Shown: positions 15,315 to 36,945, numbered from the stretch's first letter. The stretch: DNA of 64,000 nucleotides from Candidatus Omnitrophota bacterium (GCA_020429915.1 JAGQKV010000005.1:136279-200278); one strand, 5' to 3'. Notes: generated by a model from the letters alone, not told the origin. Program-made: numbers and translations.

Positions 15315-15530
15315 ATGCTAAGGCGATCATTTTCAGGTACTAACAGAAAGTCCGCACAGTCATTGGCCGAATATCTGATGGTTATGGGCGGAATCATTGC
15401 TATTCTCTTTGTATTTACCCTGCCCGGAGGCACATTTATGACCTCCGTTAATCAAGCCTCGGAAATCACCATTTCCATGATGAACGTAACCGCCACGGAA
15501 ATTTTCGACGATTTGGGACTCGTCAATTAA
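15315..15530 (+). CDS. Orphan Flp/Epd-like pilin (class III signal, Ala at -1)
   Basis: 71 aa. N-terminus RKSAQSLAEY is followed by a 20-aa hydrophobic helix. Same N-terminal pattern as the pilins at 25-33 kb. Confidence 0.5.
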   Translation: MLRRSFSGTNRKSAQSLAEYLMVMGGIIAILFVFTLPGGTFMTSVNQASEITISMMNVTATEIFDDLGLVN

Positions 15531-17759: not shown

Positions 17760-18641
17760 ATGAATATCGAGAATAAAAAACAGTTCGCCACTATCGCGCT
17801 GGCGGTAGGCTTGGGTCTGACGGCCGCATTTTTAATGTCCCAATACGTCAAGAGCAGCATTGAGAACCAAACAAAGGCCTTGGCGAAGGATTATGAGAAG
17901 AAGGCGGCCGCACAAACCGCGGCATTGCGCAAGGAAATGGAAATCAAGAACCGGGAACTGCAGAAGCAAATGCAGGCTATGGCCAAGCAGCAACAGCAGG
18001 CCCTTGCTCAGCAGCTCGCCAACCTTCCCAAAGGCGGTGGAGTCAAGGCGACTACCGGGGTTCCCACGCAGATCGTCGATAGTACGGTCTTCGCGTCCAT
18101 TACTCCTCCGGGAAAGCGCGCCATCACATTGCTTATCGACTCGCTGTCCGCGGTCGGCGGTTTGGTCAATCCGGGCGACTATGTTGATATTTTGGGCGAA
18201 CTGGAGATTCCGCATCCCCAGGATCCTCAGGAAAAGCCGATTGAAATCACCTCTGTTCTGTTCCAGAACGTTCAGGTGCTGGCGGTCAATGCGAATTTTA
18301 AACCCGTGGGAAGCGCGCTGGTCTATCAGCAGCAGCAAAAGTCTCGGGCCCTTAACGTGACGCTGGCGGTCGATCCGGAAGAAGCCGGTTTGATCACATT
18401 TGCTCAAAAGTACGGAAAACTCAAGCTGGCGTTGCGCTCGCCAGCCGAGAAGGAGACCAAAGCCCTACAGGTGGCGGCCTGGGATTCCCTCGCCGACTAC
18501 GTTTTAGATAAACAAGGTACAGAACTTAATCTACCAAAAGCCAAAGCGCCGAGCAGGGTGGAAAACGACTACGTAGAAGAAGACTTGCAGGTCGATGATA
18601 CGCCCTTTGTGGAAATATTTCGGGGAGGCAGGGAGCTATAA
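17760..18641 (+). CDS. cpaB: Flp pilus assembly protein CpaB/RcpC-like
   Basis: N-terminal TM and coiled coil. The C-terminal RcpC-like block reads RAITLLIDSLSAVGGLVNPGDYVDILGEL...VQVLAVNA...LNVTLAVDPEEAGLITFAQKYGKLKLALRS. Confidence 0.7.
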   Translation: MNIENKKQFATIALAVGLGLTAAFLMSQYVKSSIENQTKALAKDYEKKAAAQTAALRKEMEIKNRELQKQMQAMAKQQQQALAQQLANLPKGGGVKATTGVPTQIVDSTVFASITPPGKRAITLLIDSLSAVGGLVNPGDYVDILGELEIPHPQDPQEKPIEITSVLFQNVQVLAVNANFKPVGSALVYQQQQKSRALNVTLAVDPEEAGLITFAQKYGKLKLALRSPAEKETKALQVAAWDSLADYVLDKQGTELNLPKAKAPSRVENDYVEEDLQVDDTPFVEIFRGGREL

Positions 18642-20386: not shown

Positions 20387-22552
20387 ATGAATTGTAGAGT
20401 CATTTCTATCTTCAGCAGCAAGGGAGGCGTCGGAAAAACCCTTGTGGCTGTTAATCTTGCGACCGCATTGAGCAAATCCGGCAAGCGTGTCCTGCTGGTT
20501 GATCTTGACTTTCAGGCAGGCCAGGATATGGCCCGCATGCTCAACCTCGCCATTCGCAATTCCATCGTCGATATCATTCCGTTGATGCAGCAAGGTGGTG
20601 AAGCGCTCGAAATCAACGAGCACGCCACGAAACATCAGAGCGGTCTACATTTTATTCCCGCCGTTAAGACCAGCAAGCAAATCGCGCACATCACCCCGGA
20701 TAATATCAAGCCTTTTTTCCGCGAGTCCAAAAAACGTTACGACTACATCATTATTGATGCCGGCCGATCGTTTAGCGATGTTCTCATTTCCGCGCTGGAC
20801 TTTACCAATTTGATATTGCTGGTAGCCACACCCGACGTATTGGCTGTTTACCAGACCAAATGGTGCCTGGAGATCCTTCAGAACCTGCACTATCCCACCA
20901 AGATGATCAAACTTATTCTGAACCGGTCGGAAAGCCGGGGGAGTGTTGCGTGGCAGGAAATCCGCCAGGTGTTACAGGTGGAAATTTTCGGGCACATACC
21001 GTCTGATGGGAAAACTGTGGGGATGGCTCTTAACCGGGGGGTCCCGTGCTACATGGACAGTCCGCGCAGCCCGGTGGCCGAGGCATTCGGCAAAATGGTC
21101 GGACTGCTGAAGAAAGACAATCTTTATATCGAGACACATGATGTGGAAAAGACTCGGACGGTAGACGGATTTATGGCGCCGGGGGCGTTTTGGAAGAAAT
21201 TCGGGATATCCCAGCAGTCCTTCGGCACATCGGTGACCGAATATGTATCCGAAGAGGACGATATTATCTCTCTCAAGAAGCGCATTCACGAAAAGCTGGT
21301 GGAACGGCTTAACTTAGACGGTATTTCTACAGACGCCTTGGCCGACCCGGACACGGCGCAGAAGATTAAGAAAAGCGCTGAACAGGTCGTGCTTACACTT
21401 TTACTGGATGAGGCCGGGGGCCGTATATCCAACCAAGAAGACCGCACGCGGATTGTCCGGGATATTGTCAACGAGGCTCTGGGGCTGGGGCCACTGGAAG
21501 ACTTTTTGGCGGACCCGGACGTTACGGATATCATGGCCAACAACAAGGACGAAATTTATATTGAGAAGAACGGTAAGTTGATATTTACCAATAAGAAGTT
21601 TGTCTCGAACGACAAAATGCGCTCGATCATCGACCGGATCATTGCCCCGTTGGGACGGCGTATTGATGAGTCGACGCCCATGGTTGATGCGCGACTGCAG
21701 GATGGATCACGGATCAACGCGATCATCCCCCCTCTTTCCCTGAATGGGCCGATGATTACGATCCGGAAGTTCGGTCAGGAGCGGTTGGAGGCTGAGGATT
21801 TGATCACCCGTTATCAAAGTATGTCCCGGCCCATGGCCGACTTCCTTAAGGCCTGCGTAAGCGCCCGTAAGAACTTAATTGTCTCGGGCGGGACCGGCGC
21901 AGGCAAGACAACACTCTTGAACGTGGTCTCCGAGTTTATTCCTGATGGGGAACGTATTATCACGATTGAGGATGCTGCCGAGTTGAAATTAAAGAAAAGC
22001 CATTGGGGACGGCTTGAATCCCGCCCTGCCAATGTGGAGGGGAAGGGGGCGGTTACCATCCGTGATCTGTTCATCAACTGTCTGCGGATGCGTCCGGACC
22101 GTATTGTGGTCGGCGAATGTCGGGGCCCGGAGGTTCTGGACATGCTTCAGGCCATGAATACCGGGCATGACGGTTCTATGACCACTCTGCACGCTAATTC
22201 CACCCGTGATGTCGTTACCCGTATGCACTCCATGATCCTTCTGAGCGGGATTGAGCTGCCGGTCCGCGCGATCAATGAGATGATTTCTTCGGCTGTCCAG
22301 GTAATTGTCCATATCAACCGTTATTCGGATGGGACCCGCAAGATTACGGGTATCAGCGAGACCGCCGGGCTCTCGGCAGATTTTCAGCTCATCCTAAAAG
22401 ACATTTTCATTTTTCGGCAGAAAGGTCTGGATTCGGACGGAAATGTCCAAGGATCCTTTGAGGCAACGGGATTCTTACCGCAGTGCTTTGATGACTTTAC
22501 CACCAAAGGCATCCTCTTTGAAAAGTCATTATTTGATAAACCAGCCGTGTAG
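20387..22552 (+). CDS. cpaF: Fused MinD/ParA-like (CpaE/TadZ ATPase domain) - CpaF/TadA secretion ATPase
   Basis: The N-terminal 260 aa have the deviant Walker A SSKGGVGKT (CpaE/MinD-like). The C-terminal 450 aa are CpaF-like (IRKF, GGTGAGKTTLLN, VGECRG, GHDGSMTTLHANS). Confidence 0.85.
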   Translation: MNCRVISIFSSKGGVGKTLVAVNLATALSKSGKRVLLVDLDFQAGQDMARMLNLAIRNSIVDIIPLMQQGGEALEINEHATKHQSGLHFIPAVKTSKQIAHITPDNIKPFFRESKKRYDYIIIDAGRSFSDVLISALDFTNLILLVATPDVLAVYQTKWCLEILQNLHYPTKMIKLILNRSESRGSVAWQEIRQVLQVEIFGHIPSDGKTVGMALNRGVPCYMDSPRSPVAEAFGKMVGLLKKDNLYIETHDVEKTRTVDGFMAPGAFWKKFGISQQSFGTSVTEYVSEEDDIISLKKRIHEKLVERLNLDGISTDALADPDTAQKIKKSAEQVVLTLLLDEAGGRISNQEDRTRIVRDIVNEALGLGPLEDFLADPDVTDIMANNKDEIYIEKNGKLIFTNKKFVSNDKMRSIIDRIIAPLGRRIDESTPMVDARLQDGSRINAIIPPLSLNGPMITIRKFGQERLEAEDLITRYQSMSRPMADFLKACVSARKNLIVSGGTGAGKTTLLNVVSEFIPDGERIITIEDAAELKLKKSHWGRLESRPANVEGKGAVTIRDLFINCLRMRPDRIVVGECRGPEVLDMLQAMNTGHDGSMTTLHANSTRDVVTRMHSMILLSGIELPVRAINEMISSAVQVIVHINRYSDGTRKITGISETAGLSADFQLILKDIFIFRQKGLDSDGNVQGSFEATGFLPQCFDDFTTKGILFEKSLFDKPAV

Positions 22553-22593: not shown

Positions 22594-22935
22594 ATGAAAG
22601 TGCTCAATCAGTCCAAAAATTCGGTTATTGCCGAGGATGCCACCTTGGCCGACACGTTCCCTTCACGCATGATCGGCTTGCTTAAGCATGACTCCCTCCG
22701 GAAGGGAGAAGGTCTTATCATAACGCATTGCAACTCCATCCATATGTTTTTCATGCGGTTTGCCATTGATGTCATATTTATCGACAAGGCGGACAAGGTC
22801 GTCGGCCTTGTCCCGAATATCCCTCCCAACCGGCTCAGTAAAATATACTTTTCTGCCGTTAAGGCCATCGAAGTTCCCGTAGGCGTCATTGGCGACTCCC
22901 GGACCGGGCTAGGCGATCAGCTTGTAATTCAATAA
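22594..22935 (+). CDS. DUF192 (COG1430) family protein
   Basis: 113 aa. The RMIGLL... and MFFMRFAIDVIFIDKADKVVGLV blocks are typical of DUF192. Confidence 0.6.
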   Translation: MKVLNQSKNSVIAEDATLADTFPSRMIGLLKHDSLRKGEGLIITHCNSIHMFFMRFAIDVIFIDKADKVVGLVPNIPPNRLSKIYFSAVKAIEVPVGVIGDSRTGLGDQLVIQ

Positions 22936-23007: not shown

Positions 23008-24666
23008 ATGGGGGTTACGCATAAACTCAGTCCGGAAGTCCTGAACTACATTCTTCAGCAGAAGCAGTCTAATCCTGCGCTTGGCTGCCGCAAATTGGCA
23101 GAACTCGTCTCCGCGCATTTTCAAATCAATGTTTCTAAATCTTCTGTTAACAACGTCTTAAAGGATGCCAATCTAAGTAATTCTGTCGGCCGTCCCAGTA
23201 AAAAGGCCAAAGAGAAAATGAAAAAATTTCAGATACCGTCAGATAAAAAGCAGCAGATATCACAGGCGCTGCAGCAAATTCCGATACCAGAAAATGTCCA
23301 AAAACAAGAGGCGACGGAAGAGAACCCTTCCGAAAAGCAAGTAGCTGTCGCCGAGTTACAGCATCCGGCCCGGGATGTAGAATGGAGGGAGGTCATCGCC
23401 ATGAATAATGCAGGCGGTATGCTTTTGTTAGCTGCCTTTTATGAAAACATGGACGAGGCGCTTATGGGAGGTCTGCTCAATGACTATAATAGTTCACCGG
23501 ACAGGCGCCTATTCGAGAAGAAATGCAACGCCGCACTATTAATGTCCAGTTTGGACATTATTGAGTCCAATGAACGCGATATCCTGCTCCGGGAGCAGGC
23601 AAGTTTCGAGTTCAAAGTTAATGAACTGCAAGATCTTATGAATATTGCGACTACGGATATCGACCGCATTCTTTTGCAAACCAAGGTTGATTTGGAGCTT
23701 TCTCAATTAGCAAACACTGCCAGCGGGTTTGCCGTTTCTCTGGAGTCAGGAAAGGTGATCACAATGGATCCCTTTTTATCCATTGGGGGCCCGGGATCTG
23801 ATGCTTCGAATCCGACCGTTCCGATGAAGTCTGCCATCGACAAACTTTCCGAGGAGTTGTTGGTAAACAACCAGCCGCTGCTGTTCACCCGGACTGAAGC
23901 TGCGGATCCAGCGGATGCCGTTGCGTTGATGGCGGCTTTTTTCGGAATTGATGGCTACAAGTTGAATAATATTAGCATATTAGGCGATAACGGATTGCCG
24001 CAGCTTGAATTTACTTACATCACGGAGAAACAGCGGCGTTTTGTGTACGGGATTTACCAAAAGGATGAAGATTTTTCCCATTATGTTAAGGCCTCCCAGT
24101 GGGCGGAGCGAAGTTCCTATGTGGATCGGCAGGGCAAGAATTGGGAGTACAGTGTTACCAGGACGGATTACATGGGTTCTCAGATTTCGGGATTCTCGGA
24201 TGATTTGTGCGTGGTCACAGTCTGGTCGGCCGGCGACACCAATCCGCTATTGGCCATGGTGACCAATTCGATGGATGATCATAAACTACTGTCAGACAGA
24301 TACTTATCGTATTTTGTTCAAGGCAGGTCACGGGTGTGGCATGATGTCGGCTCTCATATTGGTGCCGTGGAAGCTGTGGGGGAAGAATTTAACTGTCTGG
24401 GCGATGTATTCCGAAAATTCGCCCAATTTTTATCGTTGTTCGTGGCTCGCGAGTATTTGGGGGGGGGCGGCGATCCCGAAACGTGCAGCAAGGTATGTAC
24501 AACGCCGGGGTCATTACTACAGGGTAAGGCGATAGCCGAAGTCTGTTTGCGGACGGGAGGACTGGATGATGGGCTTGTCAAAATACTGAATAAATGTGTA
24601 GAAATTGTGAATATGCGAAAAATTTACGACCGTCAGCACCGATTATTAAGGTTTATTGCGATATAG
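23008..24666 (+). CDS. 552-aa protein with an N-terminal IS630/Tc1-like HTH (GRPSKK motif); remainder unknown
   Basis: N-terminus KLAELVSAHFQINVSKSSVNNVLKDANLSNSVGRPSKK resembles the transposase N-terminal HTH with its GRP(R/S)K motif. No DDE triad was recognised and no terminal inverted repeats were seen. Confidence 0.5.
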   Translation: MGVTHKLSPEVLNYILQQKQSNPALGCRKLAELVSAHFQINVSKSSVNNVLKDANLSNSVGRPSKKAKEKMKKFQIPSDKKQQISQALQQIPIPENVQKQEATEENPSEKQVAVAELQHPARDVEWREVIAMNNAGGMLLLAAFYENMDEALMGGLLNDYNSSPDRRLFEKKCNAALLMSSLDIIESNERDILLREQASFEFKVNELQDLMNIATTDIDRILLQTKVDLELSQLANTASGFAVSLESGKVITMDPFLSIGGPGSDASNPTVPMKSAIDKLSEELLVNNQPLLFTRTEAADPADAVALMAAFFGIDGYKLNNISILGDNGLPQLEFTYITEKQRRFVYGIYQKDEDFSHYVKASQWAERSSYVDRQGKNWEYSVTRTDYMGSQISGFSDDLCVVTVWSAGDTNPLLAMVTNSMDDHKLLSDRYLSYFVQGRSRVWHDVGSHIGAVEAVGEEFNCLGDVFRKFAQFLSLFVAREYLGGGGDPETCSKVCTTPGSLLQGKAIAEVCLRTGGLDDGLVKILNKCVEIVNMRKIYDRQHRLLRFIAI

Positions 24667-24699
24667 TTGTTAATTTTCCTTGAAACGGCGTATATTTCC

Positions 24700-24858: not shown

Positions 24859-24887
24859 GCCTCTATACTTAAATAGAGGCTTTTTTA
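24859..24887 (+). terminator. Intrinsic terminator-like hairpin in the pilin leader
   Basis: GCCTCTA-tacttaaa-TAGAGGC followed by TTTTTTATT. It sits between the promoter at 24700 and the pilin ATG at 25062. Confidence 0.5.
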
Positions 24888-25061
24888 TTGAGTTGTACAC
24901 ACCCTTGGGGTGTTTTATCCTTCGCAACCGGGCGATAACCGGTTGTGAAGTGTCGTTCCCGGAGCATTGGAGACGGGCACGACAATATAGCTCTCAGGAT
25001 TCTGTCGATCTGTATCAATGATGAGAGCGAGGTTATCTGTCCAGTACGTAAGGTGGTTACG

Positions 25062-25229
25062 ATGAGGCTAATGCAGAAAGTCGTTAGGAACAGAAAAGGT
25101 CAGAGCATACTAGAATATGCCATCATCGCAACTATTGTGGCGGCAGCAGCCATTGCCATGAGTACCTACGTATTTCGGTCGGTTCAAGCAACCCAACAGA
25201 TAATTCTTCAGGAATCCAGAAATCAGTAA
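25062..25229 (+). CDS. Flp/Epd-like pilin 1 (55 aa, likely major pilin)
   Basis: MRLMQKVVRNRKG|QSILEY plus a hydrophobic helix. SD AAGGTGG lies 7 nt upstream. The track ORF is 5'-extended beyond the real start. Confidence 0.75.
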   Translation: MRLMQKVVRNRKGQSILEYAIIATIVAAAAIAMSTYVFRSVQATQQIILQESRNQ

Positions 25230-25290
25230 CCTAGTGACGTATTTTTGCTAGGGCTTTATCCTAAGGTGAACTTTTTTAAGGAGGAAGACA

Positions 25291-25512
25291 ATGCTTAAAA
25301 GGAATATAGCAATTAATGCTAAAAAGAAAAAGAAAGGTCAGAGTACCATTGAGTATATCATCTTGGTCGCTGCCGTTTTGGCCGCTCTATTGGTCTTCTT
25401 GGGACCGGGTGGTATCTTCCGTACGGCTTTTAACAATACACTGTCTACAGGTACCAATGGTATGGAGGACATGGCCAACCGTCTGCAATCATCACGGCCG
25501 ACTAGCAATTAA
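25291..25512 (+). CDS. Flp/Epd-like pilin 2 (73 aa)
   Basis: KKKKKG|QSTIEYIILVAAVLAALLVF, with SD AAGGAGG. Confidence 0.75.
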   Translation: MLKRNIAINAKKKKKGQSTIEYIILVAAVLAALLVFLGPGGIFRTAFNNTLSTGTNGMEDMANRLQSSRPTSN

Positions 25513-25559
25513 TGTCCGATAACTCAATGTTTGGTATGAATCAATAGGAGGATAAATAA

Positions 25560-25919
25560 ATGTTTAGAAAGTTGCTGAAAAACAAGAAGGCGCAAAATAC
25601 CGCCGAGTATGCAATCCTTATTTCATTGGTTGTAGCCGGTATTATTGCGATGCAAACGTATGCACAGCGTGCTCTACAAGCACGTGTACGTGACGCTGGA
25701 CAGTACCTGGCATCACAATCAGCTGCCCTGGGTAACACGAACCAGTACGAACCGTACTATCTGACAACTAACTACCTCGTGAGTTCTAACTCCGCGCAGA
25801 CACAGTTGTTGGATAACCAGACCATCCGTACTGAGTTGGATAACAACAGAACTCGTGCTTCTGGTGGTTTCCAGACATCAGCGTATGACACTTCATTGGG
25901 TCTAATTCAGGGGCTGTAA
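25560..25919 (+). CDS. Pilin-like protein 3 (119 aa, Ala at -1, QYEPYY motif)
   Basis: KNKKA|QNTAEYAILISLVVAGIIAM, with SD AGGAGG. Confidence 0.7.
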   Translation: MFRKLLKNKKAQNTAEYAILISLVVAGIIAMQTYAQRALQARVRDAGQYLASQSAALGNTNQYEPYYLTTNYLVSSNSAQTQLLDNQTIRTELDNNRTRASGGFQTSAYDTSLGLIQGL

Positions 25920-25983
25920 TCAGAAGATAGAGGTTTAATCCCTCTGAGATATCCTCAGAGGATTAAGTTAGGAGGATATATCA

Positions 25984-26310
25984 ATGCTTAAGTACTTCAA
26001 CAAAAGAAAGAAAAAAGGTCAGAGTACGTTGGAATACGCTATTCTGATTATCATTATTATCGGTGCGCTGTTGTCAATCCAGGTCTACATCAAGCGTGGT
26101 GTTCAAGGCCGTTTGAAGGGCGCTGCTGATGACATCGGTGATCAGTTCTCTAACGGAAACACGAATGTCGTCAAGAAAATGATCACTTCTTCTCAAACAC
26201 GTGACACATTCGCATCAGGTGTGACTGCATCCACTTTGACTCAGGATGAAGTCACGCTGGAAATCATGAACTCTGACGTTATGAATCTTAACCAAGAGTT
26301 CTGGGGATAA
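25984..26310 (+). CDS. Pilin-like protein 4 (108 aa, RGVQGRLKG motif)
   Basis: KRKKKG|QSTLEYAILIIIIIGALLSI, with SD AGGAGG. Confidence 0.7.
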   Translation: MLKYFNKRKKKGQSTLEYAILIIIIIGALLSIQVYIKRGVQGRLKGAADDIGDQFSNGNTNVVKKMITSSQTRDTFASGVTASTLTQDEVTLEIMNSDVMNLNQEFWG

Positions 26311-26349
26311 TAAGTATTGTGTAATATAATCACAATATGAAAATTCCTT

Positions 26350-26405
26350 AAACAAAACATGGCTTATTCGGGGGGATTTCTTCTCGGGTAAGCCATGTTT
26401 TGTTT
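26350..26405 (+). terminator. 17-bp stem hairpin after pilin gene 4 (terminator or mRNA stabiliser)
   Basis: AAACAAAACATGGCTTA pairs with TAAGCCATGTTTTGTTT across a 22-nt loop, followed by T-rich sequence. A TATAAT box at about 26459 lies downstream. Confidence 0.5.
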
Positions 26406-26497
26406 ATGTTTGTTAATATCTGCTGGCGACTGACCTTGGTGATTTGGCACCAATTGCGCTATAATATAGTAAGAACGCAATGCCCATAAGGATTCGC

Positions 26498-26893
26498 ATG
26501 CTACGAAAAATACCAAAAATCAGGATCACCGGTCAAAGGGGGCAGATGATTGCCAGCGAGTACGTTATTACGTTATTTATAGTTGTGGCTGTTATCTCAG
26601 GTCTTTCCGTTTTTTTCCGGCGGGCCGTACAGGGGCGTATCCGGGACGCCCATAACAGCATGCTCAATATAGTTCGGGATCGTATTGGGTCTCAATATGC
26701 GGGCAATAGCGTCTACATTCAGTATGAACCGTACTACCGCATTACCGATTCTGAATCGACTGTGGCCAACAACAATCAGAAGCAGGTACTTCCTTCATAC
26801 CCCTTATCTTCGGGGCTTTACCGGTCGAACCCGAATGAACAGTCACTGAGAATATCGAATACGACGACACTACCACCTGTAAATGCGGATTAA
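26498..26893 (+). CDS. Pilin-like protein 5 (about 131 aa, QYEPYY motif)
   Basis: Start chosen at the ATG with SD AAGGA (MLRKIPKIRITGQRGQMIASEYVITLFIVVAV). The track ORF begins at 26480 without an SD. Confidence 0.6.
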   Translation: MLRKIPKIRITGQRGQMIASEYVITLFIVVAVISGLSVFFRRAVQGRIRDAHNSMLNIVRDRIGSQYAGNSVYIQYEPYYRITDSESTVANNNQKQVLPSYPLSSGLYRSNPNEQSLRISNTTTLPPVNAD

Positions 26894-26895
26894 CT

Positions 26896-27240
26896 ATGCT
26901 TAAGAGTCTCGCCAAAAACAAAGAAGCACAGTCCATGATTGAGTATACTACTATACTTATCACTGTTATGGCGGTAATCGCGGCTATGAGTACCCTTGTT
27001 CGCCGTTCGTCGCAAGGTTGGATTAAGTTGGTGGCTGACCAGATCGGCGTGCAAAATCTTGCAGACCAAAGCTTTAACGACCTGAGGCAGGCGCAACTGG
27101 ATTCCAGCTACTCGCTTGTTCGATCTGATACCTCGAAAAGTACCTTAGAAACGGCCGGGATTATCAACTATATTTTTGATGACGCCGTTCGTACCGACGG
27201 AAATCAGTCCATTAATCTGGGGATCGTGCCGGAGCCCTAA
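26896..27240 (+). CDS. Pilin-like protein 6 (114 aa, Ala at -1)
   Basis: KNKEA|QSMIEYTTILITVMAVIAAM. Confidence 0.7.
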   Translation: MLKSLAKNKEAQSMIEYTTILITVMAVIAAMSTLVRRSSQGWIKLVADQIGVQNLADQSFNDLRQAQLDSSYSLVRSDTSKSTLETAGIINYIFDDAVRTDGNQSINLGIVPEP

Positions 27241-27258
27241 TACCTGCGAGGATAGATT

Positions 27259-27582
27259 ATGCTTAAGGTGTTGAAAATAAAAAACAAAGGACAATCAGCG
27301 ATAGAGTATTCGGTAATCCTGATTGTCCTTATGGGGGCCTTTTTGGCTTCGGCGAATTACTTTAAGCGGGGCGTTCAGGGCCGATGGAAGGAGTCCACAG
27401 ACTCATTGGGAGATCAGTATGATCCGCGGACATCAAATGGGCTGATCATCCATCGTTTGATCTCTAACCAAGCCACAGCCCTTACCGCTATTAGTACGCC
27501 TCAAGGATTGCAAACCACCAGACAGGATCAAACCAACTCATTGGAGCTAAAAAGCGGTTCTATCAACGTGGGAGCCTATTAA
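27259..27582 (+). CDS. Pilin-like protein 7 (107 aa, RGVQGRWK motif)
   Basis: KNKG|QSAIEYSVILIVLMGAFLA. Confidence 0.7.
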   Translation: MLKVLKIKNKGQSAIEYSVILIVLMGAFLASANYFKRGVQGRWKESTDSLGDQYDPRTSNGLIIHRLISNQATALTAISTPQGLQTTRQDQTNSLELKSGSINVGAY

Positions 27583-27603
27583 CTTGCCAAAGGGGCAACG
27601 GAC

Positions 27604-28896
27604 ATGAATCCGACGGTCGGATCAAAAAAGCATAGCAAGGCTCAAACCGCAATAGAGTTGGCGGTTTTCGGTTCTGTTATTATTTTTCTGATGGGGTTGA
27701 TTGTCCGAGCGGTGCTTGGGACGTCTTATCAACAAGGCAGCCAATTAAAGGCGCTCCGTCTGGCCATGTTGACCTCCTTTGAGTATAGCGAAGGGATCAA
27801 GGCGCCGCCGGGAGATTGGCGGGATGGAACGACCTCCCGTAACGCCGCATCTGTTTTAATCATCGAAGACCGGCTTTCAGCATCTTCCGCAAAATTCGCC
27901 ACGGTGGACCGGACGCCGATTTTATCTCAAGGAACCGCTACGCATTCGCGGAACTTATTCATGCCGGTGGAAATAGGTGAGTACGCCAATATTCCCATCG
28001 CAGATTTCTTCGTCAATGGTGTACATATTCCATTAACCTTAGGAGGGTTTGTGACCCACCCGTTGGATGACGTTGTTTTCCGGCAACGATTTAACCATGA
28101 GGCCACCGATTTTCGGCAATGCAGCGGGAACGTAAATTCGGTGTTCGAAGTCGTGAACGGAACGACTTGGTATCGCTTCGATCTGGATCACAGCGGCGGC
28201 GTGCCCAATGACGGGGTGGATGACACCAACTGTGACGATTTTTTCTGGCAGTGGCATGCCGGAGATCCCAGCCGGATTGATCCCGAGACCGGCGAGTGGA
28301 CAAACGTCGATGTGGATGCTGATGGTTACCCCGAACAGGTCTTGAGGGTAAACGGGGCTGCCAGCGTTACCACGTTGGATTATCAGGAAGGCGATATATA
28401 TTTCTCCAATGATCCGTCTGTCCCGGCGCCGGGATTCGGAAATCAGGAGGTCCAGATGTTTACGTTCTCCGACAATCCCCTGGGCACGGGCGACGGCGTA
28501 GGCACCTATTTGCGGGTAGATGAGGGGCGGTTATTTTCCCCGCTGACGGGACGGTACGCTCGGGATGCCCAGCGCAAGGACTCCGTAGACATCATCCAGC
28601 GAACGTTGCAATTGACCAAAAACACGGAAAGATTCTGTACTAATGCCGGAGTGTTAGTCACGGCCGGAACACCGGAGGGGAATCGGGCCGGATGGACGGC
28701 AGCGACCCCTAATCCTGTGGAAGTATGTTGTAGTGGCAGCGGATGTTGTTTTGGTCCGGTTACCATAACCCAGACTTGTATGGTGTATGATCAGCCGTAT
28801 CCGCTCATTTATGTGCGGAGTAGAATCGTGGATAAGCACGGCCGGAAGTATATTACACCGACCGACTCCGATCCGGTTGTAAACTTCACACGATAA
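27604..28896 (+). CDS. TadE-like pseudopilin with large C-terminal domain (430 aa)
   Basis: SKA|QTAIELAVFGSVIIFLMGLIVRAVLG matches the TadE-type N-terminus. The C-terminal region contains CCSGSGCC. Confidence 0.65.
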   Translation: MNPTVGSKKHSKAQTAIELAVFGSVIIFLMGLIVRAVLGTSYQQGSQLKALRLAMLTSFEYSEGIKAPPGDWRDGTTSRNAASVLIIEDRLSASSAKFATVDRTPILSQGTATHSRNLFMPVEIGEYANIPIADFFVNGVHIPLTLGGFVTHPLDDVVFRQRFNHEATDFRQCSGNVNSVFEVVNGTTWYRFDLDHSGGVPNDGVDDTNCDDFFWQWHAGDPSRIDPETGEWTNVDVDADGYPEQVLRVNGAASVTTLDYQEGDIYFSNDPSVPAPGFGNQEVQMFTFSDNPLGTGDGVGTYLRVDEGRLFSPLTGRYARDAQRKDSVDIIQRTLQLTKNTERFCTNAGVLVTAGTPEGNRAGWTAATPNPVEVCCSGSGCCFGPVTITQTCMVYDQPYPLIYVRSRIVDKHGRKYITPTDSDPVVNFTR

Positions 28897-28950
28897 GAAG
28901 TATTGTCGAAAAGAGTTTGTATGTATAATGGTAAAGGCAGGTGATGCAAG

Positions 28951-29247
28951 ATGTTGAAAACTCAGTGCAGAAAGGCCGCCAAATCACGTGGACAGACCAT
29001 GATCGAATTCACGTTTTGTATGATTATCGTATTTTTGATGATTTACTCTATCACCAAGGTTTTTGAATGGTCTGGTCGGGAACTGGTGTCGCGGAGAGTG
29101 GGACATACGTCCCGGTTAACGACTTCAGGCGGGGGCCTTACCCGAAGTTATACCTCCGCCGCCGATAGTGAGCAAATAGCCCAAATATCCCCGTTTTATT
29201 CTTCCGGGGTCGACATGAATGCCGTTTGGCGAGGCGGGGTTAACTAG
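28951..29247 (+). CDS. TadE-like minor pilin (98 aa)
   Basis: KSRG|QTMIEFTFCMIIVFLMIYSI. Confidence 0.6.
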   Translation: MLKTQCRKAAKSRGQTMIEFTFCMIIVFLMIYSITKVFEWSGRELVSRRVGHTSRLTTSGGGLTRSYTSAADSEQIAQISPFYSSGVDMNAVWRGGVN

Positions 29248-29251
29248 AATA

Positions 29252-32200
29252 ATGACCAAATTTCTTCACAATCTCCAGCGTTCGAAAAAAGGTCAGGTGG
29301 CCGTCGTAATACTGTTGATTGTGGCCTTTGCCCTCATTTTTTATGCCGCTACGTTGAATCTGGGTCGCATCGGGCAAAACAAAGTGGTTACGCAGATCGG
29401 CGCCGCGCAAGGGGCATCCGCATTGGCCTCGGCCATGGCCAGTTACGGGCAATCCCTGTTTATGCAACAATTGGGCGGCCGCCAGAAGAAATGCCAGTCT
29501 TCCGGGCTGTTGGGGGCCATTTTGGGATTTGTTTTGGCCGTCGTTCTTACCATATTTCTCTGGGAAGCGGCACCCGCCACCATGCAGCTCGCCGCCCAGG
29601 CCCTTTTGGTCATCGGGACGGTCCTGGCGGCCACAAGTCTAGTCCTACAAATTACCGTCATACAACCGGGTATTACCAGTGCGTGGAACAGCCTAGCAGC
29701 GGATCTCTTGCCGCTTGTGGACCAGTTTATGGAAAATGCGCTACGGGGTGCGCTGCAAAGTGCGACCTCAGACCCGGTTCAGGTTCCTGACCTGAACGAT
29801 ATGGATCTGGACGGGTCGTTCGGTTTGGATGCGGTGACCAGTGAGGCGATCGACAACATATCCCGGTTCAGTCTGTACTATGCCCAGATATTTGACGGTA
29901 TTACGGTCAACTTTATCCCCGAAGCAGAGAATTTTCAGGTGGCCCTTCAGGATTTTGTCTACCAGTTGCCTCCCGTAGGTCCGAACACCACGGCCGGGGG
30001 ACTTCCCGCCACCTGTGGTGCTGCTCCGGCCTGCGGACCCGATCAGGAATGTGTCGATGTGGAAACCGCCCCCGTTTGTGTCCCGGCATGGGGGCTTTGG
30101 GATCCTCTCCCCGAGTATTTTGTCCCCGGGCCCATTCGGCCGCCACCAATTGATGTTATCTATCCATTTACGATACCACAAGATTTGACGCACCCGTGCT
30201 TTAGTGATCCTGCGAACGTACCATCGGTGTGTAATCCGTGTTGTCTTCCGTTAACGACACCTGACCCCAGGGGACCTTCCTTCGGTCAGCTGAGGGCTAG
30301 GCCCGGTTGTTGCGAGTGTTCTACCCTGCCCTCCGTCATCACCATTCCGGACCCCACCGACCCGACCGGTGTAGCGACGATAGATGTGTTTAATCCGGAT
30401 TTCTGTACCGTGGACGGATGTATTGATGCGTGTGGCGGCCCGTTGCAATGCCCTGTAAACGCGGCATCGCGGGCCTGTTGTGATGCTTGCGGGGATATTA
30501 CCCAGGAATGTGGAACGTCAGCCACCTGTCAGGCCCTCAGCCCCTACGGATTCACCGAGCCCACACTGGGAACCTTTTACGCGTGGGTCTATAACGCCTA
30601 TGAAGAAAATTGGGAAAACTCGTTCCGGTCCTTCCGTGAGCAACTCGGCCGGGATGATGAGCACCGTCTGTATTTCAAGGATTCCAGCAACCCCAATTGG
30701 GCGCCACAATTTGCCCCGCCTTGGCTGGGAAGTCGGTTTTATGCGGACGACTCGACTGGTTTTTATATCGGTCTTCCGGTCGTTCCTCCGGCTGTCGGGG
30801 AAAACCGGCGTGGCGTCTTTCCATTTTTATGGAAGATTACAACGTGGGGGTATGATCTGGATGATTTAACCACGCCCGATCCTACGGATGTGGATCCCAT
30901 TGATGATCCGTTTGACCAACGCTGTAAGTGGTGCGATGAAAATCGCGGGGTGGTTTGTGATCCGCGTCTGCCGTATCAGATGGTACAGTTAAATTTACCC
31001 TTTGATCCCACAACTCTAACTATTTACCCAACATACTGCGTCGACACCTATATTGATAACGTCAGTCTGATCCCATCAGGGGGATCGCTTGAATATCCTG
31101 CCGCGACGTGTGTCGATCCGGATACGTATGCAGGAAACGCATTTTGGAAGCGGGGCGCCGACCGGTTCTGTTCGGAAGGCGACATTGGCGGGGATTCTGC
31201 CTGGCCATATGAAAGCCAGTGTCCGAAATATACGGATGGTGGCTGTTTCCTGGATCCAAACGGCAACGGGGTGGCTGACTGTCCGGCAGAGTGCGACACG
31301 AACGGCAACGCGATTCCGGCCCTCTGCCAGTGTGGCGATCCCTCGGCGACGGATCCTTTGCTCGTACGCGGGGATCTCTTCCCGGAAGATGTATTGGATG
31401 AGCTCATATATGGTTTGACCGCGTTTTTTGACGATGCCAACGCATTTCTTGCCAGGGGACGGGCGAACATCGCTATTGATTTTGAGAATTGGTTTAACGA
31501 CTGGCAGGCCTGGATTGACCCCGGTCCATGGGCCAATCAAGCCGATGTGCTCGGCGATCCGGCTTATCCCAATCCTTATCCGGACTGCTACCCTTGGGAT
31601 ACCGACTATGACCCATCAACGCCCGACGTCTGCCAATCGGAGCCCGGGCAACTGTATTATTGGCTGCGTAACATCAATTTGATTCATGATGAACTTATTG
31701 AGATCAAGGAGACAAGCCATGCCGGCGTCAACTGTAACCGGGACCCGTGGTGCGTTCCCATTGCCGGTTGTGCAGATGTATCCGCATTTGAAGAGGTTAC
31801 ATTCGATTATAATGCCAATGGCATCAACGGCGATGTCGAAGACATCATCGCATGTCTGACATTCAATGTGGATGGCTACGACTACGCTTGTAACGGCGGC
31901 GTTCCAGACGCTACGTGTCTGAGGGCTACGGGAGACCGACAGGGGAACGATTTCCGTTATGCCAATTGTATGTTGTCCTGTTCAGCCGCGGCATGTACCA
32001 ATTTGCCGCGGTCTGTGTTGGCGCCCGCAACTTACGATCCGAACGCATATGTAGCGGCAAACGTCCTGGACGAACCGGATATGTCGGCCATGCTCTTGTG
32101 TGTCCACAGCTGTGGTAATCCCACTTGCACCGCCTTGCCCGCAAACCGGAGTTCAGACGGGACGCCGTACGTTTATACGGCTACGCCGCCGCCGGCCTTT

Positions 32201-33172
32201 GATCCGGCCTTGGATTGTACCGGATTACAGCTGAATGATGCCAACGGCTGGCGGACAGCTGTCCGGGATTCTCTGTTGATGGCTAACCCTACATGTGACA
32301 TCGCACCCGGAGGCTGGCTGGATCTGACCGGGACTTCGGCTATTGAGGCTGCAAATCAAGTTATAAAGATGCAATTGCGCCGCGACTTTCTCGAGGATCT
32401 CGTCAACGATATGAATCAGTTTATCGTCACCATGAATACGGCCCGGATCAAGTTTTATGAGTTTCTGACGGCCCCCGGCCCAGTGGCCGACCTGATTCAG
32501 GCTCGATTTGACTATGATGCGAATCCACCGGATCATTTCCCGTTCCAGGCCATTTATGGCTGGCAGGATCCGATCCCGCCTGAAATTCGTCTGGGAGCCC
32601 CGGGAGGCGAATCCTATTGGCATATCGTCAAAGTTGAGGGACGAATGCCCAAGAGGTGTGACAATGCCTGCGGTGTAGGCGGAAATCCGGATCCCGAGTG
32701 GCCCAAAGTCCGCACATATACCAAGAAGATGGGATTGAAGCGATGTTATGAACTGGTTAACACAGATGGTATCGTCAAATTCCGTGTGTTACGTTTTGAC
32801 GAGGCGCCTAATTCGACGGGAAGTGGTCTCACATTCCCGAACGGACAGCCGCTGTGGAAATTCCGTTTCTTCCACCCCAGCCCTAATCGAGGGGATGTTG
32901 ATGCCGCTACACTGGGGACCACATGTGACTCGATTATGATCACAGATCCCAGAGTGCCGGTAGATACGTTCAAAGGGGCGTTTTTCATGAACCAGCGGGT
33001 CGGAACTGGAGATACAGACCCTGTTTTGGGGAATAATTGGAACTGTTGGAACAGAACCCACTTCATTCTTGCCAATGGCGGGATTGGAACAGAAGTGTGC
33101 GCACAATATTACCTTAAACAGGGTGTTCGCCCCGGTATGACATTTTCATTTATCCCTTGCGAAGCGTTCTAA
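29252..33172 (+). CDS. Giant TadG-like pilin-domain protein (1306 aa) with two extra TM helices and an extremely Cys-rich extracellular region
   Basis: Start at the ATG 29252, just after the upstream gene's stop at 29247. N-terminus SKKG|QVAVVILLIVAFALIFYAATLNLGRIG is TadE/G-like (PF13400 type). More than 70 Cys, in CxxC, CC and CxC clusters. Confidence 0.7.
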   Translation: MTKFLHNLQRSKKGQVAVVILLIVAFALIFYAATLNLGRIGQNKVVTQIGAAQGASALASAMASYGQSLFMQQLGGRQKKCQSSGLLGAILGFVLAVVLTIFLWEAAPATMQLAAQALLVIGTVLAATSLVLQITVIQPGITSAWNSLAADLLPLVDQFMENALRGALQSATSDPVQVPDLNDMDLDGSFGLDAVTSEAIDNISRFSLYYAQIFDGITVNFIPEAENFQVALQDFVYQLPPVGPNTTAGGLPATCGAAPACGPDQECVDVETAPVCVPAWGLWDPLPEYFVPGPIRPPPIDVIYPFTIPQDLTHPCFSDPANVPSVCNPCCLPLTTPDPRGPSFGQLRARPGCCECSTLPSVITIPDPTDPTGVATIDVFNPDFCTVDGCIDACGGPLQCPVNAASRACCDACGDITQECGTSATCQALSPYGFTEPTLGTFYAWVYNAYEENWENSFRSFREQLGRDDEHRLYFKDSSNPNWAPQFAPPWLGSRFYADDSTGFYIGLPVVPPAVGENRRGVFPFLWKITTWGYDLDDLTTPDPTDVDPIDDPFDQRCKWCDENRGVVCDPRLPYQMVQLNLPFDPTTLTIYPTYCVDTYIDNVSLIPSGGSLEYPAATCVDPDTYAGNAFWKRGADRFCSEGDIGGDSAWPYESQCPKYTDGGCFLDPNGNGVADCPAECDTNGNAIPALCQCGDPSATDPLLVRGDLFPEDVLDELIYGLTAFFDDANAFLARGRANIAIDFENWFNDWQAWIDPGPWANQADVLGDPAYPNPYPDCYPWDTDYDPSTPDVCQSEPGQLYYWLRNINLIHDELIEIKETSHAGVNCNRDPWCVPIAGCADVSAFEEVTFDYNANGINGDVEDIIACLTFNVDGYDYACNGGVPDATCLRATGDRQGNDFRYANCMLSCSAAACTNLPRSVLAPATYDPNAYVAANVLDEPDMSAMLLCVHSCGNPTCTALPANRSSDGTPYVYTATPPPAFDPALDCTGLQLNDANGWRTAVRDSLLMANPTCDIAPGGWLDLTGTSAIEAANQVIKMQLRRDFLEDLVNDMNQFIVTMNTARIKFYEFLTAPGPVADLIQARFDYDANPPDHFPFQAIYGWQDPIPPEIRLGAPGGESYWHIVKVEGRMPKRCDNACGVGGNPDPEWPKVRTYTKKMGLKRCYELVNTDGIVKFRVLRFDEAPNSTGSGLTFPNGQPLWKFRFFHPSPNRGDVDAATLGTTCDSIMITDPRVPVDTFKGAFFMNQRVGTGDTDPVLGNNWNCWNRTHFILANGGIGTEVCAQYYLKQGVRPGMTFSFIPCEAF

Positions 33173-33195
33173 GCTTATGTCTTGGAGGCATTTGT

Positions 33196-33558
33196 ATGCT
33201 TGTGCAAATTCATAGCCGTAAGGCTCAGTCCACAATTGAGATAGCCAGCTTGGTGGTCTTTGTGCTCACGGCAATGTTAATCTTTCAGAAATACATCGCG
33301 CGCGGTATGTATGGCCGCTGGAAACAGGTCGGTGAATCCTTCGGACAAGGTCGTCTTTACGATCCAATTACTTCAGTTGCCTGCGGCTACGATCAGTGGC
33401 AGGATACCGGTCTTTGGTTCAATCAAACCTGTTTTGACGAGGATTGCGGCGAACGGGATTGCGTCGCCGAGACCAAAGATGATGCTAACTGCGTAACATG
33501 TATTAGCACAACTTGTCGATCCAGTTATGGTGGTCGCGACGTATGTAACGATCCGTAA
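33196..33558 (+). CDS. Pilin-like protein 11 (120 aa, Ala at -1, Cys-rich C-terminus)
   Basis: Start at the ATG with a GGAGG SD. SRKA|QSTIEIASLVVFVLTAMLIF, plus the ARGMYGRWK motif. Confidence 0.65.
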   Translation: MLVQIHSRKAQSTIEIASLVVFVLTAMLIFQKYIARGMYGRWKQVGESFGQGRLYDPITSVACGYDQWQDTGLWFNQTCFDEDCGERDCVAETKDDANCVTCISTTCRSSYGGRDVCNDP

Positions 33559-33735: not shown

Positions 33736-34593
33736 ATGCTGATCCTAATCCTACTTTTGGTCGCGGCCTCGGTAACATTAATCGGCTGGCAACTTATTCC
33801 GAGTGTCTACAGCCGCACGGCCGTTATCAGCGAGCGACGTCAACAAAAGCTCTCCAATACCATGGAGAAGGTGATGTCGCGGACGGATGCCCGCAAGCTC
33901 AGCCGGGTGTTCATTATGGCCCCGCTCATCCTTTCCGCGGGTTTCTATTTCATTTTCCCAGCAGAAATGCGGTTTTTTGGTATCGTCTTCGGTCTTATTC
34001 TGGGCCTCCTGTTTCCGGGTATTTATATCCAGATGTTGACCGGTAAGAACCGGGAAAAATTCGACGCGCAACTCATTGATGCCCTTATGATTATGTCCAG
34101 CTCCTTCCGCGGGGGGTTGAGTTTGGTCCAGGCCATGGAGGCCGTGGAGCAGGAAATGCCGGATCCGATCCGCAAGGAGTTCGGTATTGTCCTCGGGGAA
34201 AACAAGATGGGGGTTTCGCTGGAAGAGGCCCTCAACCACCTGTACAATCGTATGTCATCCATATCTTTGCAGCAAATGATCACGGCCATCTTGCTGGCCC
34301 GGGAAACCGGTGGTAACCTGCCGGTTATTTTTAATCGGATTGTAACCAATATTCGTGAAAGCCGAAAGATACAACAGAATTTGGATACACTTACGATCCA
34401 GGGGAAAATTCAGGGGGCGGTTATGACCCTGCTTCCCATCGGGTTCGGTTTTATTGTTTACTCCACGAACCCACAGATGATGGAAAATATGTTCACATCG
34501 CAACTCGGCCGCAGTTTGTTGATCTACGCGGCCTTTTCGTGGTGTATCGGGGCCTACATGGTGTGGAAAATTAGTACTTTTAAGGATTTCTAG
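33736..34593 (+). CDS. tadB: Flp pilus assembly inner-membrane protein TadB (T2SS-F fold)
   Basis: 285 aa, with TM helices and a cytoplasmic GspF-like domain. Confidence 0.8.
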   Translation: MLILILLLVAASVTLIGWQLIPSVYSRTAVISERRQQKLSNTMEKVMSRTDARKLSRVFIMAPLILSAGFYFIFPAEMRFFGIVFGLILGLLFPGIYIQMLTGKNREKFDAQLIDALMIMSSSFRGGLSLVQAMEAVEQEMPDPIRKEFGIVLGENKMGVSLEEALNHLYNRMSSISLQQMITAILLARETGGNLPVIFNRIVTNIRESRKIQQNLDTLTIQGKIQGAVMTLLPIGFGFIVYSTNPQMMENMFTSQLGRSLLIYAAFSWCIGAYMVWKISTFKDF

Positions 34594-34594: not shown

Positions 34595-35467
34595 ATGTTT
34601 GCTATCTTATTGATTAACACATACTTATGTATATTTTTTATGATAATGGGACTAATCCCGGTGCAATGGGAACACCGTCCGACATTGAGCGCCTTGGGGA
34701 TTCAGCCCACGGCTCCGAAAAAGAAAAAAAGCCTGACTTCAATCATCCGGATTATTGCCAAGCTCAACAAGCCGGTCTGCCAAGGGGGGTTGCGGCAGCG
34801 CATCGAGAAGGAGCTGTCCATAGCGCATATCAATATCACGCCTGAGGAATTTGTATTGGCAAAAGAGTTATGTATTATACTCGTATTGTTTGTTACGTAT
34901 CCGGCGATTAGCCCGGATATGATGATGTTTTGGCTGTTCATGAGCATGGGGGTCGGGTATGTATTGCCGGAACTCCTTGTGCGCAATAAGATTAAGAAGG
35001 TGAAGGCGACAATTGTCAAAGAGTTGCCGGATGCGATCGACTTATTGGGGTTGTGTGTAAATGCGGGGCTTGACTTCATGCTGTCTCTCAAATGGGTGGT
35101 GGAAAAGTCACCACCCTCCGTAATGATCGACGAGCTCAACGTAGTATTGCAGGAAATTAATGTCGGGAAAACCCGCCGGGATGCTATCAAGGACTTAGCG
35201 GCACGTTATGAACTCCCGGATCTGTCCACTTTTTCCCGAACGCTTATCCAAGCCGACAAAATGGGGACTTCGGTTACCGAGGCCCTGAATATTCTCTCCG
35301 AAGACATGCGCCAGGCCCGTTATCGCCGCGGTGAACAGTTGGCCCTTAAGGCACCAATGAAGATGCTTGTGCCGCTGCTGATGTTCATTTTTCCGGTTGT
35401 AGGTATCCTGGTGGCCGGTCCGATTCTCCTCGACTTTATCGAAAACAATCCGTTCGAAAAGATGTAA
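34595..35467 (+). CDS. tadC: Flp pilus assembly inner-membrane protein TadC (T2SS-F fold)
   Basis: 290 aa, GspF-like (LPDAIDLLGLCVNAGLDF...). Its ATG is adjacent to the tadB stop. Confidence 0.8.
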   Translation: MFAILLINTYLCIFFMIMGLIPVQWEHRPTLSALGIQPTAPKKKKSLTSIIRIIAKLNKPVCQGGLRQRIEKELSIAHINITPEEFVLAKELCIILVLFVTYPAISPDMMMFWLFMSMGVGYVLPELLVRNKIKKVKATIVKELPDAIDLLGLCVNAGLDFMLSLKWVVEKSPPSVMIDELNVVLQEINVGKTRRDAIKDLAARYELPDLSTFSRTLIQADKMGTSVTEALNILSEDMRQARYRRGEQLALKAPMKMLVPLLMFIFPVVGILVAGPILLDFIENNPFEKM

Positions 35468-36675: not shown

Positions 36676-36945
36676 GTCCACCGAAACGAGTAATAAGAGA
36701 CCTTAATCATGATGGCTAGTACATTAATTCAGCTAATATATATTACTTTGACAATACATATAGTATTACACTTAATGGGAGAAAAAGGAAAATTCGGTAA
36801 ATTTAGTTGCCGATTAGTCAAATCATCACAAAGTGATGGCATATCGGCAAAGCGGTTGTATCAGGTTGCTCAGGCGCAAGCTGACGGCCGCAGGCAAATG
36901 TCCAATCAAAACTGGCGCTTTTTGGACATTTAATTATTCAGATTT

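Follow-up and report, generated by a model that had tools for sequence, protein, structure and literature searches.

An array of eleven consecutive pilin-like genes, here called p1 to p11, was found within a Tad locus of a Candidatus Omnitrophota bacterium, in a stretch of 64,000 nucleotides (nt) hereafter called the window (GCA_020429915.1, JAGQKV010000005.1:136279-200278). The array consists of ten prepilin-type genes and one TadG-like gene (p10), set in a row inside the bacterial Tad locus. The array, which is conserved across the Omnitrophota, probably encodes the subunits of a bacterial Tad (type IVc) pilus, with p1-p4 providing the filament and p5-p11 the minor or tip subunits. An earlier note, made from the sequence of the window alone, had read the same genes as eleven pilins with archaeal Epd-type class III signal peptides. 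The eleven pilin-like genes were recovered, p5 (Glu at +6) and p10 (TadG-like, without the Glu) departing from the common pattern; the archaeal reading is considered below.

The pilin array and its signal motif

The whole 64-kb window was scanned in six frames for the motif [G/A/S]xxxxE with a minimum of two Lys or Arg residues ahead of it and of 14 uncharged residues after it. Ten matches lie on the + strand between 25098 and 33223, every one of them at the N-terminus of an open reading frame (ORF). An eleventh match, at 15354, belongs to an orphan gene, p0, and elsewhere in the 64 kb there are just two strays (8564 on the - strand and 50635 on the + strand). Block-shuffled versions of the window yield 0.2 matches on average and one at most, as compared with 12 observed. 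The genes are listed below with their lengths in amino acids (aa), the predicted cleavage site (arrow) and Shine-Dalgarno (SD) sites.

25062..25229, + strand: p1, Flp-like prepilin, 55 aa (42 aa mature), RKG↓QSILEY; SD-like AAGGTGG upstream
25291..25512, + strand: p2, small prepilin, 73 aa (57 aa mature), KKG↓QSTIEY; AGGAGG SD
25560..25919, + strand: p3, mid-sized pilin, 119 aa, KKA↓QNTAEY, QYEPYY motif; AGGAGG SD
25984..26310, + strand: p4, mid-sized pilin, 108 aa, KKG↓QSTLEY, RGVQGRLK; AGGAGG SD; the best-conserved member
26498..26893, + strand: p5, mid-sized pilin, 131 aa, RG↓QMIASEY with Glu at +6; RRAVQGRIR, QYEPYY
26896..27240, + strand: p6, mid-sized pilin, 114 aa, KEA↓QSMIEY
27259..27582, + strand: p7, mid-sized pilin, 107 aa, NKG↓QSAIEY, RGVQGRWK; nearest paralog p4
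27604..28896, + strand: p8, large pilin, 430 aa, SKA↓QTAIEL; N-terminal helix and a beta-rich, orphan-fold head
28951..29247, + strand: p9, small TadE-like pilin, 98 aa, SRG↓QTMIEF
29252..33172, + strand: p10, TadG-like giant member, 1306 aa, KKG↓QVAVVILL, without Glu5
33196..33558, + strand: p11, Cys-rich mid-sized pilin, 120 aa, RKA↓QSTIEI, ARGMYGRWK
15315..15530, + strand: p0, orphan p2-like small prepilin, 71 aa, KSA↓QSLAEY; also called as a gene

The ten prepilin-type members (spanning 25062-33558 on the + strand) have a short leader rich in Lys and Arg, Gly or Ala at position -1, Gln at +1, Glu at +5 (+6 in one of them) and one hydrophobic helix. Hydropathy plots show a single, N-terminal hydrophobic segment in all array members but p10. 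The latter has three such segments, and 56 Cys and 119 Pro residues as counted on the longer ORF 29219-33172. Only two or three of the eleven genes are of Flp size. All eleven are considered real, because their orthologues occur in unchanged order in about 40 other genomes.

Several particulars of the earlier note hold as well: the orphan at 15315, through the motif scan and its paralogy to p2; the N-termini KKKKKG↓QSTIEY, NKKA↓QNTAEY and KNKEA↓QSMIEY; and the additional motifs R[GA]VQGR[LW]K and QYEPYY in several paralogs. The start of the array has to be moved. It had been placed at a GTG codon at 24945, and alignment of orthologues puts the start of p1 at ATG 25062. Other starts were corrected in agreement with the gene calls, to 26498 for p5, 33196 for p11 and, probably, 29252 for p10.

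The members p3-p7 and p11 are full-length paralogs with a common R-x-x-Q-G-R motif directly after the helix. The products of p4 and p7 are 36% identical over 103 aa (E 2e-18), and those of p3 and p5, both of which contain QYEPYY, are 33% identical over 88 aa. The orphan p0 is a paralog of p2 (37.5% identity, E 7e-9). In the p5 family, one extra residue stands between the +1 Gln and the Glu-Tyr pair, so that Glu occupies position +6 and Tyr position +7, a shift that is not normally tolerated in a filament subunit.

The cleavage-site grammar was counted among the orthologues that could be placed by the motif scan, 37-124 per paralog and just 7 of 61 for p5. Gln occupies position +1 in every placed orthologue of p1 (56/56), p2 (72/72), p4 (83/83), p6 (59/59), p8 (61/61) and p9 (51/51), and in nearly all those of p3 (122/124), p7 (76/79) and p10 (48/50). 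This position is more variable in p11, where Gln is present in 20 of 37 orthologues (54%), as against at least 96% in p1-p10. Glu at +5 is found in 100% of the motif-placed orthologues. At +6, p1-p6 have Tyr without or almost without exception, and it prevails in p7 (64/79) and p11 (28/37); all 56 orthologues of p1 have both Glu5 and Tyr6. The +6 residue is Leu in p8 and Phe in p9 (44 of 51 orthologues). Position -1 is held by Gly or Ala, the share of Ala being 14% in p1, 59% in p3, 47% in p6, 57% in p8, 45% in p9 and 59% in p11, and positions -2 and -3 are held by Lys or Arg. Median leader lengths are 9-16 residues in p1-p4, p6-p9 and p11, about 20 in p5 and 25 in p10. Position 7 of p1-p4 is Ala, unlike the Gly of the flp motif.

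The Pfam family PF04021 (Class_IIIsignal) is the former DUF361, defined on archaeal pilins with Gln at +1. In a single-sequence Pfam scan, p2 matched this family with 28.5 bits, above the gathering score of 23.7, and p4 with 15.8 bits; apart from matches of p1 to Flp_Fap and of p9 to TadE, the remaining paralogs had no match. Of the models that the earlier note had proposed to search, Class_IIIsignal (DUF361) was passed by p2 only, and Flp_Fap and TadE stayed under their gathering scores. The orthologues of p1-p7, p9 and p11 were searched at E of at most 0.1. Among 46 orthologues of p1, Flp_Fap was matched by 44 (best E 1.2e-6), Class_IIIsignal by three and N_methyl by two. The 40 orthologues of p2 gave 39 matches to Class_IIIsignal, 16 to Flp_Fap and 13 to Flp1_like, and the 134 pooled orthologues of p3-p7, p9 and p11 gave 39 to Class_IIIsignal, 13 to TadE and 13 to Flp_Fap. 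Eight of 21 N-termini of p10 orthologues matched PF13400 Tad (TadE/G-like; best E 3.9e-6); the copy in the window had no match to it, and no other domain and no PDB relative were found for p10. By these assignments, the pilin set is made of one Flp-like (p1), one TadE-like (p9) and one TadG-like (p10) member and eight further predicted class III pilins. The Pfam matches and the conservation of the motif bear out the earlier claim that the signals in this Tad locus are of class III (prepilin type) and not Sec signals.

An AlphaFold2 model of p8 (predicted template modelling score 0.71) has the classic pilin shape, with a helix at residues 8-62 and a beta-rich head, for which no structural relative was found in PDB. 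Sequence searches of PDB with p1, p2, pooled profiles and p10 gave either insignificant matches to N-terminal helices (Geopilin, Flp, archaellin) or none.

Machinery genes and conservation in the Omnitrophota

The array sits between a tadZ-tadA fusion and the genes tadB and tadC. The genes around it are as follows.

16779-17747: PpiC-type rotamase, the first gene of the conserved order
17760..18641, + strand: RcpC/CpaB (PF16976; TIGR03177 CpaB equivalog with 104.5 bits, cut-off 71)
18645..20330, + strand: RcpA/CpaC-like secretin, with a Secretin match and a C-terminal TonB_C domain (residues 480-558)
20387..22552, + strand: fusion of TadZ (ParA-like) and TadA/CpaF ATPase, 721 aa; N-terminal half AAA_31/ParA, T2SSE 3.9e-58
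22594..22935, + strand: DUF192 protein, kept in the locus
23008..24666, + strand: U552, a soluble protein of 552 aa with an N-terminal transposase-like helix-turn-helix (HTH), kept in the locus; the HTH/transposase match is weak
33736..34593, + strand: TadB-like platform protein with one T2SSF domain (PF00482)
34595..35467, + strand: TadC-like platform protein with one T2SSF domain (PF00482)
36934..64000, + strand: giant ORF of more than 9022 aa, open at the end of the window; Peptidase_C39 match at residues about 210-334

Judged by these family matches, the machinery is of the bacterial Tad (type IVc) kind. The ATPase part of the fusion protein (residues 345-702) matches Caulobacter CpaF with E 2.9e-111, versus 2.4e-35 for archaeal FlaI. 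The ATPase gives E 8.6e-97 with the TadA family and 8.8e-11 with GspE, the GspE/PilB models scoring 1e-10 or weaker.

A search with p4 gave 1279 homologues. The best 120 of the 1279 are 71-94% identical, those with an organism name come from Candidatus Omnitrophica/Omnitrophota metagenome-assembled genomes (MAGs), and the N-terminal half of p4 is invariant. The product of p8 has a 100% match in such a MAG, with the NCBI tag KC900_05095; these matches assign the organism to the Omnitrophota. When one genome per species was scanned with the p4 alignment, 80 loci were obtained, numbered with the prefix L. All of them appear to belong to Omnitrophota MAGs, though some records are labelled Planctomycetales. 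In about 40 loci, those long enough to judge, the order PpiC-RcpC-secretin-TadZA-DUF192-U552-p1..p11-TadB-TadC is kept. In loci with a recognised orthologue, identity to the copies in the window is 47-89% for p1-p4 and 23-69% for p5-p11. The most distant loci (L070, L075, L078-L082) have lower identity and were not resolved gene for gene; among them, V. archaeovorus LiM (L082; CP019384.1:12169-32465 in the p4 scan) carries an orthologous locus. A search of a representative library with p2 gave 394 clusters at E of at most 0.001, the matches listed being p2-like small metagenome proteins. Judged by orthology and gene order, the eleven-gene set is conserved gene for gene across the Omnitrophota.

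Two genomes contain a tandem duplication of the p2-p3-p4 module without p1 (L020, 8100-10400; L028, 9260-11450). The joint duplication of these three genes, without p1, suggests that they act as a unit. Many of the MAG records bearing the locus (L006, L007, L013, L022, L023, L025 and others) are titled Planctomycetales/Planctomycetia or Saccharibacteria, and these titles are probably taxonomic mislabels.

Some features of the locus stand apart from the pilins. The fusion of the secretin with TonB_C is unusual; it might link the channel in the outer membrane with peptidoglycan or with an energised partner. The TadZ-TadA fusion is matched by one ORF in most of the related loci. The DUF192 protein and U552, found between tadZA and the array in about 40 Omnitrophota loci, are fixed members of the operon, and a literature search for a link between DUF192 and pili gave nothing relevant. 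Positions 1-12309 of the window are the region of the chromosomal origin (parB, parA, yidC, dnaA, dnaN, gyrB, gyrA), and a few metabolic genes lie between it and the pilus locus. The Tad locus is within about 15 kb of dnaA, and is similarly placed in V. archaeovorus LiM, at 12-30 kb of CP019384.1. The 1.4 kb from tadC to the giant ORF (35468-36933) contain no ORF above about 90 codons, and promoter-like and terminator-like sites are seen at 36438-36476 and 36646-36668. In an Rfam scan of 22000-37500, no match reached the gathering score.

The hairpin downstream of p4

The region between p4 and p5 contains a candidate terminator.

26354..26401, + strand: terminator-like hairpin, 20-bp stem followed by a T-run, between p4 and p5

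Of 79 related loci, 76 have a strong hairpin at most 240 nt downstream of p4. Among random 240-nt segments, taken as a control, 56% reach -20 kcal/mol and 19% reach -26 kcal/mol; most of the p4 hairpins have energies of -27 to -37 kcal/mol. An alignment of 30 hairpins gives a consensus stem of 19 pairs, ten of which have compensatory changes, with an invariant core GGCTTA...TAAGCC. The stem sequence itself, CATGGCTTAC..GTAAGCCATG, is kept across species (after p4 in L003-L072), the covariation being in the outer and inner pairs. Since the sequence of the stem is kept beyond the needs of a plain terminator, the hairpin may also be a binding site for a protein or an RNase.

The sites AGGAGG are present ahead of p2, p3 and p4, and none precedes p5 or p6. 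Taken together, the hairpin, the distribution of SD sites and the gradient of conservation along the array suggest two tiers of expression, p1-p4 and p5-p11.

Assembly model, alternatives and related systems

If the array is the pilin set of a bacterial Tad pilus, a prepilin peptidase encoded elsewhere would cut the products after the Gly or Ala at -1, leaving Gln as the new N-terminus. By homology, the CpaF-type ATPase, the TadB/TadC platform, RcpC and the secretin would build a surface filament. The products of p1-p4 would be present in abundance, as filament subunits and adapters: Flp-like p1, with 42 aa when mature, is the best candidate for the major pilin, and p2 could be an adapter similar to KilK/KilO of the Myxococcus Kil system. 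The products of p5-p9 and p11, together with TadG-like p10, would be minor pilins, made in small amounts, with a part in priming assembly and in forming a tip complex. By analogy with the "Tip" model of Kil and with TadE/F/G complexes predicted for other bacteria (PMC12075869), this complex would show the orphan-fold heads of p8 and p10 to host or prey cells; p10, maybe still anchored in the membrane, would take part in the contact with host or prey. It has been reported that TadE/F/G homologues form tips and that Kil has small Flp-like adapters (PMC12075869). Expression of the Tad complex of V. archaeovorus in co-culture with its prey has been reported (PMC10066038).

A number of observations weigh against this reading. 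Most paralogs lie under the Pfam gathering scores, including the matches of p1 to Flp_Fap (PF04964; 19.8 bits, gathering score 32.2) and of p9 to TadE (15.4 bits, gathering score 22.9). The AlphaFold2 model of p4, built with 21 homologues, has a predicted local distance difference test score of 58.5 and is confident only for the helix at residues 15-54. The split into filament and tip genes is suggested by conservation and the predicted terminator, and the most conserved of p1-p4, any of which may be the major subunit, is p4 and not p1. Because it has three hydrophobic segments and no Glu5, p10 may stay in the membrane and not enter the filament. Finally, there is no candidate peptidase nearby. 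The motif GxGDxK, or its relaxed form G[DA]xK, was not found in hydrophobic ORFs of the window or of about 80 related loci (10 kb on either side of p4), and no Peptidase_A24 is listed among the genes annotated near the locus or in the 10 kb adjoining the window on its left. As no peptidase was found near the locus, we can only infer cleavage. This absence does not refute the model of a Tad pilus, since Tad peptidases can be encoded apart from the locus (PMC6668835) and one set of Kil pilins is processed by an unidentified enzyme (PMC12075869). PilD (K02654) is shown for some other Omnitrophota genomes in the supplement of Seymour 2023. U552 and the DUF192 protein were considered as peptidases and rejected, as neither has a match to a membrane-protein or peptidase domain.

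One alternative is an endopilus similar to that of type II secretion systems (T2SS), in which the mid-sized pilins form a short periplasmic pseudopilus pushing cargo, either parts of the giant protein or accompanying enzymes, through the secretin. We consider it rather unlikely. A secretin is indeed present, and the five or six mid-sized, small-headed pilins bring GspG-K to mind. However, none of the pilins has the N_methyl motif G↓F/M-T-L-x-E (PF07963), N_methyl being matched by just two of 46 p1 orthologues, and the set includes the Flp-sized pilins p1 and p2. The ATPase is of the CpaF type (2.9e-111) and not of the GspE type (8.8e-11), TadB and TadC are separate platform proteins, and the locus has TadZ and RcpC/CpaB. 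West-Roberts 2023 (10.1101/2023.11.21.568195) calls the locus type II secretion system-like and reports that it is kept immediately upstream of giant genes, which is also the layout here; still, a protein of more than 9000 aa is implausible as cargo of a secretin. Another possibility is that the N-termini are ordinary Sec signals or membrane anchors of unrelated small proteins, and that their likeness to prepilins is coincidental. In its favour, most paralogs lack a Pfam match above the gathering score and their head domains have no known fold. Against this stand an invariant G/A-Q-x-x-x-E pattern, always equally far from the helix, in every paralog and among the 37-124 orthologues of each, a charged Glu within the hydrophobic segment, the position of the genes inside a Tad operon, the significant matches to Class_IIIsignal and Flp_Fap, and a chance expectation of 0.2 motif matches. 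The coincidence is extremely improbable, and the conservation of the motif in the sequences effectively refutes it.

The archaeal reading holds that the products are Epd/DUF361-type substrates of an EppA-like peptidase, that is, an archaeal-type or recently archaea-derived pilin set in a bacterial Tad frame. The near-invariant +1 Gln, the short leaders and the tolerance of Ala at -1 fit it, as does Class_IIIsignal being the best Pfam model for p2 and most mid-sized paralogs; homologues are labelled "UPF0333 family" by JGI. In M. maripaludis, the DUF361 pilins have a leader of 5-13 residues that ends in Gly, followed by Gln at +1 and Glu at +5, and they lack the +6 Tyr and the Flp motif (PMC3875500). 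Tyr6 is, however, conserved in all Tad pilins (PMC10710030), and it is present in p1-p7 and p11. The pattern E-[FY], which the earlier note had taken as euryarchaeal, is not of the Epd type, the +6 Tyr being a hallmark of Tad/Flp. Moreover, p1 matches Flp_Fap, every machinery gene is of the bacterial Tad type, including those similar to CpaF and CpaB, and motif scans of the window and the related loci found no EppA-like gene nearby. In PMC10066038, Omnitrophota TadB/C group with those of Bdellovibrionales, not archaea, and RcpA groups with predatory Myxococcota and Lysobacter. An archaeal-type set is on balance improbable. Of the Epd-type reading in the earlier note, the PF04021 match, the short leaders and the +1 Gln stand. 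Its remark on the supposed descent of Tad systems from archaeal pili agrees with PMC6668835, according to which Tad probably arose from an Epd-like pilus of archaea; this common ancestry of Tad and Epd also counts for the archaeal reading. Its comparison with the one to three flp genes of typical loci used the wrong baseline, because Tad loci also contain tadE, tadF and tadG, and the Kil system has one major and 14 minor pilins (PMC12075869). In the predicted Omnitrophota prepilins, the first part of the signal is Epd-like (a short leader, Gly alternating with Ala at -1, Gln at +1), and the Glu5-Tyr6 that follows it is the hallmark of Tad. This mixed grammar is what shared ancestry of Tad and Epd might lead one to expect, and it is no evidence for an archaeal-type locus. 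A bolder version would have the Omnitrophota Tad keep an ancestral Epd-like grammar (obligatory +1 Gln, -1 Gly/Ala, short leader) read by an EppA-like peptidase encoded elsewhere, as a living intermediate between Epd and Tad, with p1-p4 forming a heteropolymeric filament and p5-p11 a tip that docks or deploys the giant protein in predation. We regard this combination as quite unlikely.

Canonical Tad/Flp loci are those of Aggregatibacter (flp-tadV-rcpCAB-tadZABCDEFG) and Caulobacter (cpa/pilA). The Omnitrophota locus shares with them the CpaF-type ATPase, TadZ, the split TadB/TadC, RcpC/CpaB and the secretin, as well as a Flp-sized Glu5-Tyr6 pilin and putative TadE-like and TadG-like accessory pilins. 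Unlike the canonical loci, which have pilin genes at their edges and about 3-5 pilins, it has ten class III pilins, and its pilin genes form a single block between tadA and tadB. The +1 residue is nearly always Gln, -1 is Gly or Ala, and position 7 (p1-p4) is Ala, not Gly. Further differences are the fused tadZ-tadA, the TonB_C domain of the secretin, the lack of a tadV found in or near the locus, the fixed DUF192 and 552-aa HTH proteins, and the giant gene that always follows the locus.

The Kil system of Myxococcus xanthus (PMC12075869) is similar in its predatory/epibiotic context, in having, besides a small Flp major pilin, numerous minor ones (14 in Kil), "adapter" pilins of a small Flp-like type and one large member of the TadG/KilN type whose head has no known fold, and in that the peptidase is not necessarily encoded with its substrates. 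However, the Kil pilins are encoded in four clusters as paralogous triplets, whereas the Omnitrophota have one array of distinct orthologous genes. No T3SS* partner was seen here, and the roles given to the Omnitrophota genes are predicted ones. The Epd pili of M. maripaludis (PMC3875500; PMC6668835) are similar in the short leaders, +1 Gln, +5 Glu and PF04021 matches, in the mix of pilin sizes (about 55-75 aa, about 130-150 aa and larger) and in having two single-domain platform genes. They differ in that their pilins lack the +6 Tyr and their leaders end in Gly (here Gly or Ala), and in that p5 has Glu at +6. Epd also lacks the secretin and RcpC, has FlaH-like partners instead of TadZ, and its EppA is encoded with epdA-C.

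The locus is already known in outline from West-Roberts 2023 (10.1101/2023.11.21.568195) and Seymour 2023 (PMC10066038). It is the same as the "Tad complex" or "T2SS-like" locus described there for the Omnitrophota (in LiM, CP019384.1:12382-29832), the window containing an orthologue, and both describe a giant gene following a Tad-like locus, as here. A 2026 preprint repeats the observation of the locus (10.64898/2026.06.07.730766). Within the accessible text of Seymour 2023 and West-Roberts 2023, the eleven orthologous pilin genes, the invariant motif, the alternation of Gly and Ala, the TadG-like member and the hairpin are not resolved. The present analysis adds the phylum-wide orthology of the eleven genes, the near-invariant grammar G/A↓Q-x-x-x-E-Y, the assignments of p1, p9 and p10, the covarying predicted terminator after p4, and the lack of a nearby peptidase.

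The Omnitrophota, ultra-small bacteria not yet in cultivation, are believed to be predators or parasites. The Tad locus and the adjoining giant gene are the main genomic clues to how they may attach to cells and attack them. The mixed grammar of the signals is a small but useful data point on the proposed archaeal origin of Tad pili, and overturns nothing. From the fixed eleven-gene set, the motif and the internal predicted terminator, candidates that can be tested emerge for the subunit of the filament, for adhesins at its tip and for the rules by which the peptidase would choose its substrates.

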